From a virus: 64,000 nucleotides of DNA. The position numbers were made by a program, and so were the translations under genes. The stretch lies in the UHGV virus genome UHGV-0289908; one strand, 5' to 3'. Positions 29,215 through 29,530 of the stretch are shown piece by piece. The notes under the pieces are model-generated. The model made no database searches and was not told where the DNA came from. It saw only the letters and a program-made list of their open reading frames with translations. Numbering within the stretch: the first letter of the stretch is position 1; every line of letters starts with the position of its first letter.

Positions 29215-29485
29215 ACACACAAATACTAAACTTTTCCCTTACTATCACTAAACACGACCCACGACCCCCAAAAAGTTTACCTATATTAAACAAAAAGTTT
29301 ACCCACACTAAACCACACAAATATTAAACTTTAGGTTTAAAAATATTAAACCACAAAATTACTAAACAAAAAGTTTAAAATCACTAAACACCCTTATGTT
29401 TAGTCACACTAAACACAAGTTTAAAAATACTAAACATGACCTAGTTTATAAATACTAAACCAATGTTTATAAATACTAAACTCAA
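29215..29485. repeat. array of ~10-12 iterons (~22-24 bp, consensus AAGTTTA(A/T)AAATACTAAAC)
   Basis: aaatactaaac / actaaac repeated at ~23-bp spacing together with aagtttac/aagtttaaaa. Confidence 0.65.
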
Positions 29486-29486
29486 G

Positions 29487-29530
29487 TTATCCACAAGCTA
29501 CCCACTTATCCACAACCAACCTGTGGATAA
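29487..29530. promoter_or_regulatory. three perfect DnaA boxes (TTATCCACA x2 direct, TGTGGATAA inverted): candidate replication origin
   Basis: ttatccaca at 29487-29495 and 29506-29514; tgtggataa at 29522-29530, immediately after iteron array. Confidence 0.6.

Follow-up and report, generated by a model that had tools for sequence, protein, structure and literature searches.

In the origin of phage lambda, four iterons that are bound by the O protein and possess internal dyad symmetry lie beside an adenine plus thymine (A+T)-rich region within the O gene. In chromosomal origins of the Firmicutes (the oriC type), which usually neighbor dnaA/dnaN, a cluster of DnaA boxes precedes DnaA-trios and an A+T-rich unwinding region. 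Phage P1 is a plasmid prophage, and c-st and the p1 phage-plasmids of Clostridium botulinum group III are proven plasmid prophages. Origins that join iterons to DnaA boxes are represented by P1 oriR, F oriS, pSC101 ori and RK2 oriV, and a Firmicutes theta replicon with DnaA boxes is found in pBS72 (PMC4980987). Repeats and DnaA boxes also occur in the injection-stop (iss) region of phage T5, a large conserved noncoding region with many repeats, palindromes and DnaA boxes that is not considered an origin (bioRxiv 10.1101/866236). Here we examine a 64,000-nucleotide stretch of the virus genome UHGV-0289908, called the window below, in which an array of palindromic iterons runs up to three perfect DnaA boxes. 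From its sequence and conservation, we conclude that this element (29213-29530) is probably a DnaA-assisted iteron origin, most plausibly one for episomal maintenance.

An iteron array adjoining three perfect DnaA boxes

The window matches exactly a segment of a 154,609-bp contig from a human-gut metagenome (ERZ919609 k127_72480), the proteins of which recur on many other 50-200-kb contigs. It derives from an SPbeta/c-st-like phage with two divergent gene arms, wherein the minus strand encodes the genes up to 27.6 kb and the plus strand those beyond 30.8 kb. Between the arms are 2.9 kb of noncoding DNA (27.9-30.8 kb), hereafter termed the hub, which carries the element of interest:

29213-29481, no strand: iteron array of eight full and about four partial 17-bp units, 73% A+T
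29487-29495, plus strand: DnaA box 1, TTATCCACA, perfect
29506-29514, plus strand: DnaA box 2, TTATCCACA, perfect, forming a convergent pair with box 3 across a 7-bp gap
29522-29530, minus strand: DnaA box 3, reading TGTGGATAA on the plus strand, perfect
29545-29585, no strand: A+T-rich stretch to the right of the boxes, AAAAGTCAAGTAAAAACTTAATTAAATTTTTCAC, a possible unwinding element

A first-pass annotation of the window had proposed a theta-type origin made of about ten direct repeats of 22-24 bp and three perfect DnaA boxes in an AT-rich setting. All three boxes are present, beginning at 29487 (+), 29506 (+) and 29522 (-) in plus-strand coordinates. The repeats are likewise real and lie beside the boxes, but the repeating unit is a 17-bp palindrome at a spacing of 21-38 bp rather than a uniform 22-24-bp repeat. 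The array is 73% A+T, and its 40-mers include some of the least stable 1% in the window.

Each unit is an imperfect palindrome of the form GTTTA-N7-TAAAC (consensus GTTTACAAATACTAAAC). Full copies (n = 8) start at 29275, 29297, 29335, 29373, 29398, 29419, 29444 and 29465, and the approximately four partial copies, which retain the right half only (...A(C/T)TAAAC), end at 29231, 29253, 29329 and 29367. Start-to-start distances along the array are 38, 22, 38, 38, 25, 21, 25 and 21 bp, corresponding to about 2 or about 3.5 helical turns. These sequences are concentrated at this one locus: the window has 15 ACTAAAC heptamers, of which 10 lie within 29225-29481, and a position weight matrix scan of both strands of the window revealed no iteron site of comparable strength outside the array.

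Only 5 bp separate the end of the final iteron from DnaA box 1. A search of the whole window yielded one further perfect DnaA box (17184, minus strand). At this base composition, chance alone would give 0.8 perfect boxes and 1.2e-7 three-box clusters within 44 bp per window. Single-mismatch boxes number 28 against 23 expected, in line with chance. Iteron origins are characterized by three or more tandem repeats of about 17-22 bp with near-helical spacing that are confined to the origin, and by one or more consensus DnaA boxes adjoining them. The array exhibits the first of these features, and the three perfect boxes provide the second. We recognized no repeated 13-mers that might serve as an unwinding element, and no dnaA/dnaN genes of the kind that mark chromosomal oriC-type origins in Firmicutes are located near the box cluster.

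Conservation of the element in related gut phages

Relatives were reached via homologs of the two proteins that flank the hub, and three of the resulting contigs (L076, L077 and L078) span the hub in its entirety. For the flanking protein, identity with the window phage is 80% (L076 and L078) or 57% (L077). In each contig, DnaA boxes begin 3-5 bp past an array of six to eight full GTTTA-N7-TAAAC units, with this order unchanged and with 20-22 bp between the start of the final iteron and the first box. A perfect DnaA box therefore follows the final iteron in four of four genomes when the window is included. The set of three perfect boxes is identical in L078, whereas the middle box is changed to TTGTCCACA in L076. 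In the more distant L077, a single forward box is accompanied by a pair of reverse boxes that overlap (TGTGGATAT and TGTGGATAA), such that box 2 is either absent or re-arranged. An additional relative, L053, is collinear through the hub, and its contig stops just short of the array.

The pattern of change within the array is informative. When the four box-proximal iterons of the window are compared with those of L077, the arms are identical at 40 of 40 positions and the centers at 16 of 28, and the spacers differ. Because the arms are invariant while the centers, the spacers and the box layout drift, we attribute this conservation to selection on the half-sites of a dimeric protein and on DnaA binding, rather than to recent common descent.

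Other searches brought no further relatives to light. A metagenome-wide scan with a conserved hairpin (AAAAGGTATAG-N6-CTATACCTTTT) returned unrelated loci only, and searches of genome contigs returned no relatives with the profile of the left-hand flanking protein (356 amino acids, discussed below) and only chance matches with the pattern AAATACTAAAC-N2-6-TTATCCACA. Likewise, no relatives emerged from IMG/VR scans with both flanking proteins or with the iteron-box pattern. The hub has no blastn match among INPHARED phages or PLSDB plasmids, and blastn of 29150-29650 against PLSDB plasmids revealed no similarity.

A candidate origin for episomal replication

If the element is an origin as proposed, a phage-encoded dimeric protein would cooperatively occupy the GTTTA-N7-TAAAC palindromes of the A+T-rich array, and host DnaA would bind the three boxes beginning 5 bp past the final iteron. 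The imperfectly palindromic nature of the iterons is what implies that the phage-encoded binder is dimeric. Together, this protein and DnaA would unwind either the low-stability array or the DNA beside it, where they would load the helicase of the host, and the resulting forks would exit both ways, co-oriented with the divergent gene arms. Such an origin would most likely serve low-copy, plasmid-prophage replication in the manner of P1 oriR, not lytic replication. An episomal role seems most likely because the presumed dependence on host DnaA is accompanied by genes for ParM/ParR, a PemK toxin and an Xer-like recombinase. The location of the element at the point of divergence of the gene arms also favors an origin. 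In polymerase sequence (YonO type), the nearest characterized relatives of the phage are plasmid prophages, namely c-st and the C. botulinum p1 plasmids, and neither boxes nor iterons occur in the homologous hub of its integrating relative Goe12. The sequence features, their significance, uniqueness in the window, conservation and position, and the presence of maintenance genes were observed directly; protein binding, unwinding, dependence on DnaA, a theta mode of replication and an episomal state are what we infer for this phage.

Two sets of observations weigh against this interpretation, and the first concerns the initiator. The cis-architecture that had suggested an origin in the first-pass annotation is real, unique in the window, beyond chance expectation and conserved, but no initiator gene was found in the proteins scanned. 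Specifically, no replication-initiator family from Pfam, PHROG or NCBIfam was detected in the largest left-arm proteins, the gap-adjacent genes, 55 early-arm open reading frames (ORFs; 30.7-53 kb) or the maintenance island. Among these proteins there is accordingly no counterpart of the adjacent cognate Rep gene (Rep_3, RepA_N or RepE/pi-like) that accompanies iteron origins. Moreover, tblastn searches with the c-st protein CST015 and its RepA-annotated homolog found nothing in the window or in about 8 kb past its right end.

The protein encoded closest to the left edge of the hub is a weak candidate for the iteron binder:

26576-27646, minus strand: 356-amino-acid protein of an uncharacterized family, first gene of the left arm

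This protein has no Pfam or NCBIfam match, and a profile search places it in a family of 1,189 representative clusters (E<=1e-3). A structural model built from 75 family sequences has a predicted local distance difference test (pLDDT) score of 95 and exhibits several winged-helix domains, and the protein is therefore predicted to be a multi-winged-helix DNA binder. Its structural similarities, however, are to generic winged-helix proteins only, with none specific to Rep. In phages of Clostridia and Bacillus, members of the family are syntenic with the gene for the YonO-type polymerase, and an integrating Bacillus arbitrium prophage encodes one homolog immediately upstream of yonO, which hints at a role in transcription. 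Another homolog resides on the 12.4-kb C. botulinum plasmid p5BKT015925, which has no annotated Rep. This plasmid also has no DnaA boxes or clear iterons, and so it does not settle the role of the protein. On the opposite side of the hub, the neighboring gene encodes 251 amino acids that include a conserved 130-amino-acid N-terminal domain of unknown function.

The second set of observations concerns the locus itself. The A+T-rich stretch at 29545-29585 is not kept in L077, where alignment identity is 0.30-0.52, and no DnaA-trio-like element with a 3-nucleotide periodicity was seen by eye after box 3, without a dedicated scan having been made. Cumulative GC skew reaches its minimum at the hub, and it flips also at a reverse-oriented block at 53-56 kb. 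We do not count the skew as independent evidence for an origin, because its switch coincides with gene orientation. In addition, the exact three-box arrangement is present in 44 IMG/VR contigs, some of which have many more boxes and a few of which have neighboring tandem repeats. DnaA-box clusters are thus not rare in viral contigs, and the T5 region with such boxes is not considered an origin, which tempers both the novelty and the certainty of our proposal. Finally, the repeat and DnaA-box cluster of c-st, which is compared with the window below, is not at an arm junction. Since there is no recognizable rep gene adjacent to the array, we describe the element as one that would work like an iteron origin and do not assign it to a named replicon family.

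Promoters and dispersed operator-like sequences around the array

The iterons and boxes are embedded among several elements that resemble signals for transcription control:

27791-27819, minus strand: leftward sigma-A-type promoter, TTGACA-17-TAAAAT (11/12), strong, ahead of the left-arm genes
28981-29125, plus strand: left TTCGAC(A) cluster with a 10-bp period, TTTTTCGACCTTTTTCGAC; TTCGACAGGATTCGACA...TTCGACA, kept in relatives
29132-29161, no strand: perfect 12-bp inverted repeat, TAAAAGGTATAG-N6-CTATACCTTTTA, between the TTCGACA cluster and the iterons
29726-29792, no strand: right TTCGACA cluster, including the 20-mer AATTCGACAAATTTCAACAT at 29768-29787 (minus strand)
30000-30411, plus strand: rightward early promoters, TTGACG-17-TAATAT at 30123-30151 and TTGACT-17-TATACT at 30383-30411, both with TG
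30073-30091: perfect palindrome, TTCGACAAATTATGTCGAA
57996-59234, plus strand: MrpR/YopR-like protein with a tyrosine-recombinase fold

The TTCGACA family flanks the iteron array on both sides, and it also makes a palindrome between the early promoters. Its 26 copies in the window compare with 9 expected. The 20-mer of the right cluster recurs exactly, in inverted orientation, at 59297-59316 (plus strand), 29.5 kb away. This second copy is situated 63 nucleotides past the MrpR/YopR-like gene, and the first copy flanks the DnaA boxes. The 12-bp inverted repeat is kept, with loop changes, in L053, L076, L077 and L078. The -35 hexamers of both early promoters are contained within palindromes (CTGTTGAC-N-GTCAACAG; 30120-30152 and 30379-30411, plus strand). 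The recurrence of this arrangement in relatives points to an operator for an additional regulator. A 370-nucleotide leader follows the early promoters at the right end of the hub.

Given these surroundings, the entire module might instead be regulatory, with an array for DnaA and a repressor coupling early or late transcription, or DNA entry, to the DnaA status of the host, or titrating DnaA. We judge this to be quite improbable. DnaA acts as a transcription factor in Firmicutes, the site lies between divergent promoter sets, and the TTCGACA family, which is in excess across the window and is present on both flanks, has the appearance of a dispersed operator. The phage also encodes a master repressor of the MrpR/YopR type (PMC10516654), and the T5 iss region is a case in which repeats, palindromes and DnaA boxes are assembled in DNA that is not considered an origin (bioRxiv 10.1101/866236), although the DNA-entry model for T5 is itself a hypothesis. 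However, no recognizable promoter lies within 500 bp of the boxes, and 8-12 tandem sites far exceed the usual need of an operator. Moreover, the iterons occur at one locus only, whereas operators of the MrpR type are dispersed. In SPbeta, MrpR binds a dispersed repeat element (SPBRE) at many promoters (PMC10516654). The TTCGACA family is dispersed in the same way, and therefore is a better candidate for the operator of the MrpR-like repressor than are the iterons.

Conserved noncoding DNA and a possible packaging signal

To the left of the TTCGACA cluster, and again to the right of the boxes, the hub contains additional sequences of unusual composition or conservation:

28038-28270: hypervariable segment
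28270-28385, plus strand: phased T-tracts with a period of about 10 bp, predicted to be intrinsically bent, 0.78-0.88 identity to L077
28400-28960, plus strand: G-rich noncoding element of about 560 bp, a possible packaging (pac) region or noncoding RNA
29895-29937: alternating purine-pyrimidine tract, (CGTG)n/(CGTACA)n, CGTG/CGTA, Z-DNA-prone, found in all three relatives with varying length

Phased A/T tracts had been noted at 28270-28385 in the first-pass annotation, and they are indeed period-10 arrays of T-tracts. The core of the G-rich element (28640-28790) is 92-98% identical even in L077, exceeding the conservation of the flanking proteins (57% in L077). We consider this element to be noncoding because its mismatches are distributed evenly among the three phases (36/37/36) and its indels are 10 and 11 nucleotides long. 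ORFs inside the hub (for example 28662-29030, minus strand) were rejected as genes for similar reasons: their lengths vary among relatives, their mismatches lack codon phase and their indels are 10/11 nucleotides. A terminator-like hairpin at 28956-28977 was also rejected, as it is absent from the conservation in relatives. Rfam models identified no known RNA family within the hub.

A hub of this kind is also where some phages begin to package their DNA. SPbeta-like phages open their genomes, and start to package them, within the intergenic DNA that precedes the yonP-yonO arm (bioRxiv 10.1101/2021.11.22.469490). In Goe12 (L098), an integrating SPbeta-like phage, the same divergent layout surrounds a positionally homologous hub of about 1 kb upstream of yonP-yonO, which contains a GT-rich block (L098 ~7740-7900) and no DnaA boxes or iterons. 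By analogy, the iterons could be small-terminase binding sites at a pac signal, as in the SPbeta yonR-yonP region. The opening point of the SPbeta genome in the homologous yonR-yonP hub agrees with this idea (bioRxiv 10.1101/2021.11.22.469490), as do the terminal repeats of c-st, which lie between its two arms, the pac-type packaging of phage PMBT24 (PMC11035940) and the bent DNA of the nearby phased T-tracts. The metagenomic contigs of several relatives end within the hub, including L053, which ends just before the array. However, these ends are scattered and coincide with the hypervariable segment instead of converging on one point, no part in packaging is known for DnaA boxes, and the SPbeta-like hub has no such repeats or boxes. 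The G-rich element is a better candidate, as it resembles the GT-rich block of the SPbeta-like hub. Because SPbeta-like packaging starts in a hub with a GT block and no iterons, and because the c-st terminal repeats are located between the arms, we tentatively assign pac to the G-rich element, and find it very unlikely that the iterons serve this purpose.

Partition and maintenance genes

Near the right end of the window, an island at 53-62 kb includes plasmid-maintenance genes among others:

52989-56211, minus strand: reverse-oriented block encoding a 787-amino-acid P-loop ATPase (DUF8128) and two small probable membrane proteins
56908-57810, plus strand: XerC/D-like tyrosine recombinase, a candidate multimer resolvase or integrase
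59583-60805, minus strand: parM (59846-60805; ALP_N, MreB-like_C) and a ParR-sized ORF (59583-59846, 87 amino acids)
61164-61550, plus strand: PemK/MazF-family toxin

The ParMR, tyrosine recombinase and toxin genes named in the first-pass annotation are largely accounted for by ParM, the ParR-sized ORF, the Xer-like recombinase and the PemK-type toxin, but the gene at 57996-59234 belongs to the MrpR/YopR family. In SPbeta, this family provides the master repressor and not a recombinase (PMC10516654). The identity of the 87-amino-acid ORF as ParR is deduced from its position, since it has no match to any ParR family. The 787-amino-acid ATPase has a weak, below-cutoff VirD4-like NCBIfam match, and its placement recalls that of an FtsK/SpoIIIE-like gene near the c-st arm junction.

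The presence of parM raises the possibility that the array is a parC-like centromere, bound by a ParR-like protein and pulled by ParM, with the DnaA boxes either separate from it or coupled to it. ParR proteins bind arrays of 10-20-bp repeats, as in the parC sites of R1 and pSK41, and the iteron array resembles these known targets. The phage encodes both ParM and an ORF of suitable size for ParR. Furthermore, no direct-repeat array was found in the 360 bp upstream of parM, the usual place for parC, or downstream of parR. Against this, the centromere of type II (ParMRC) systems is a repeat array directly upstream of parMR that overlaps its promoter, whereas the iteron array is about 30 kb from parM. 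The 87-amino-acid ORF has no ParR-family match, and a centromere would leave no role for the three adjoining DnaA boxes that are kept in relatives. We therefore think it unlikely that the array is a centromere, and continue to favor an iteron origin that recruits DnaA.

Other genes of the phage

The left arm (minus strand) includes genes for a portal protein, a large terminase, an exonuclease, three tRNAs and an HU-like protein. The large terminase gene (11089-14139, minus strand) is split by an intein with a LAGLIDADG homing endonuclease, and genes for GIY-YIG (24339-25232) and HNH (37130-37741) homing endonucleases are present that vary in occurrence among relatives. A Bmp/PnrA-like ABC-transporter substrate-binding lipoprotein (18936-20087, minus strand; Pfam E 1e-68), kept in relatives beside the tRNA cluster, looks like an auxiliary metabolic or surface gene. 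A borderline Rfam match to 6A RNA occurs at 16816-16866 (minus strand; 42.5 bits versus a gathering threshold of 41.2).

The left arm also encodes a 917-amino-acid single-subunit RNA polymerase of the YonO type. Its best matches are in Clostridium phage c-st (37.6%), Enterocloster phages (about 35%) and SPbeta-like Bacillus phages (about 27%), and its best PLSDB matches are in C. botulinum group III phage-plasmids. The early arm (plus strand) carries small genes, including ArdA-like, HNH, peptidase and phosphoesterase genes. A Pistol self-cleaving ribozyme (Rfam RF02679; 31875-31941, plus strand; 60.8 bits versus a gathering threshold of 34.5) occupies intergenic DNA about 1.1 kb from the start of this arm, where small early genes border it on both sides. 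Genes for ribonucleotide reductase, thioredoxin and nucleotide kinases are found beyond the right end of the window.

Implications

A broader and more doubtful possibility is that the hub is the first definable origin of a widespread group of uncultivated SPbeta/c-st-like gut phage-plasmids, with an initiator from an uncharacterized family (for example the 356-amino-acid protein) and with iterons that double as a ParR centromere or are coupled to pac. One 2-kb hub would then integrate replication, partition, packaging and repressor control. If the origin assignment is correct, it would provide a concrete, testable origin for phages of about 130-155 kb that recur in many human-gut assemblies and have no cultured member. 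It would also offer a minimal replicon for vectors in gut Clostridia, and a marker with which the plasmid lifestyle of these phages could be judged from metagenomic coverage.

Comparison with known systems

The candidate origin shares with iteron plasmid origins its tandem repeats of 17-22 bp at about two helical turns, the perfect DnaA boxes that adjoin them and the A+T-rich, low-stability DNA. As with those origins, it is associated with partition, toxin and multimer-resolution genes on a large, presumably low-copy genome. There are also clear differences. No rep gene of a known family is beside the array, the spacing of the iterons is irregular (21-38 bp), and the order is iterons, boxes and A+T-rich DNA rather than boxes, A+T-rich DNA and iterons. 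Moreover, the iterons are internally palindromic, and in this respect are closer to the O sites of lambda. The lambda origin likewise places imperfectly palindromic iterons beside low-stability DNA. In contrast to the intergenic array described here, which abuts three boxes, the lambda iterons are inside the O gene and do not depend on consensus DnaA boxes beside them.

The T5 iss region is similar to the hub in being a large, conserved noncoding region with repeats, palindromes and DnaA boxes in a big phage genome. However, the eight boxes of T5 occur as fixed pairs in inverted repeats that belong to its terminal repeats, and its origins map elsewhere. In the window, three boxes abut a tandem array that exists at one locus, at the junction of the gene arms, in a phage with plasmid-maintenance genes.

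The closest counterparts are the phage-plasmids of the c-st/p1 group, which share with the window phage a YonO-type polymerase (35-38% identity), SPbeta-like structural genes, a YopR/MrpR homolog and PemK. In c-st (L099), four repeats of about 22 bp (GGTGATTAAAAAGC...) are interleaved with five DnaA boxes, two of them perfect and three with one mismatch, at 11448-11650. This cluster is directly upstream of CST015, which is annotated as hypothetical. CST015 shares 91% identity with a protein listed by NCBI as replication initiator protein A on p1 of C. botulinum strain 3859/11 (NZ_CP063960.1), where the repeats and DnaA boxes are kept. We found no description of the cluster as an origin in the searchable literature; by its arrangement, it may be the plasmid origin of the botulinum-toxin phage. 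A repeat and DnaA-box cluster beside a rep gene thus indicates that an origin-like module of this kind exists in the phage group. The c-st repeats are unrelated in sequence to those of the window and are interleaved with the boxes, whereas the iterons described here precede the boxes, and no CST015-like gene with upstream GGTGATTAAAAAGC repeats and boxes is found in the window. Partition also differs, as c-st uses TubZ/TubR and the window phage has ParM. The c-st-like p1BKT015925 has the same two-arm gene layout, and the strand bias of its two arms was read as two replichores by Skarin et al. (PMC3098183). The pairing of iterons with DnaA boxes in the window is a textbook design extended to a new lineage, and not a new mechanism.

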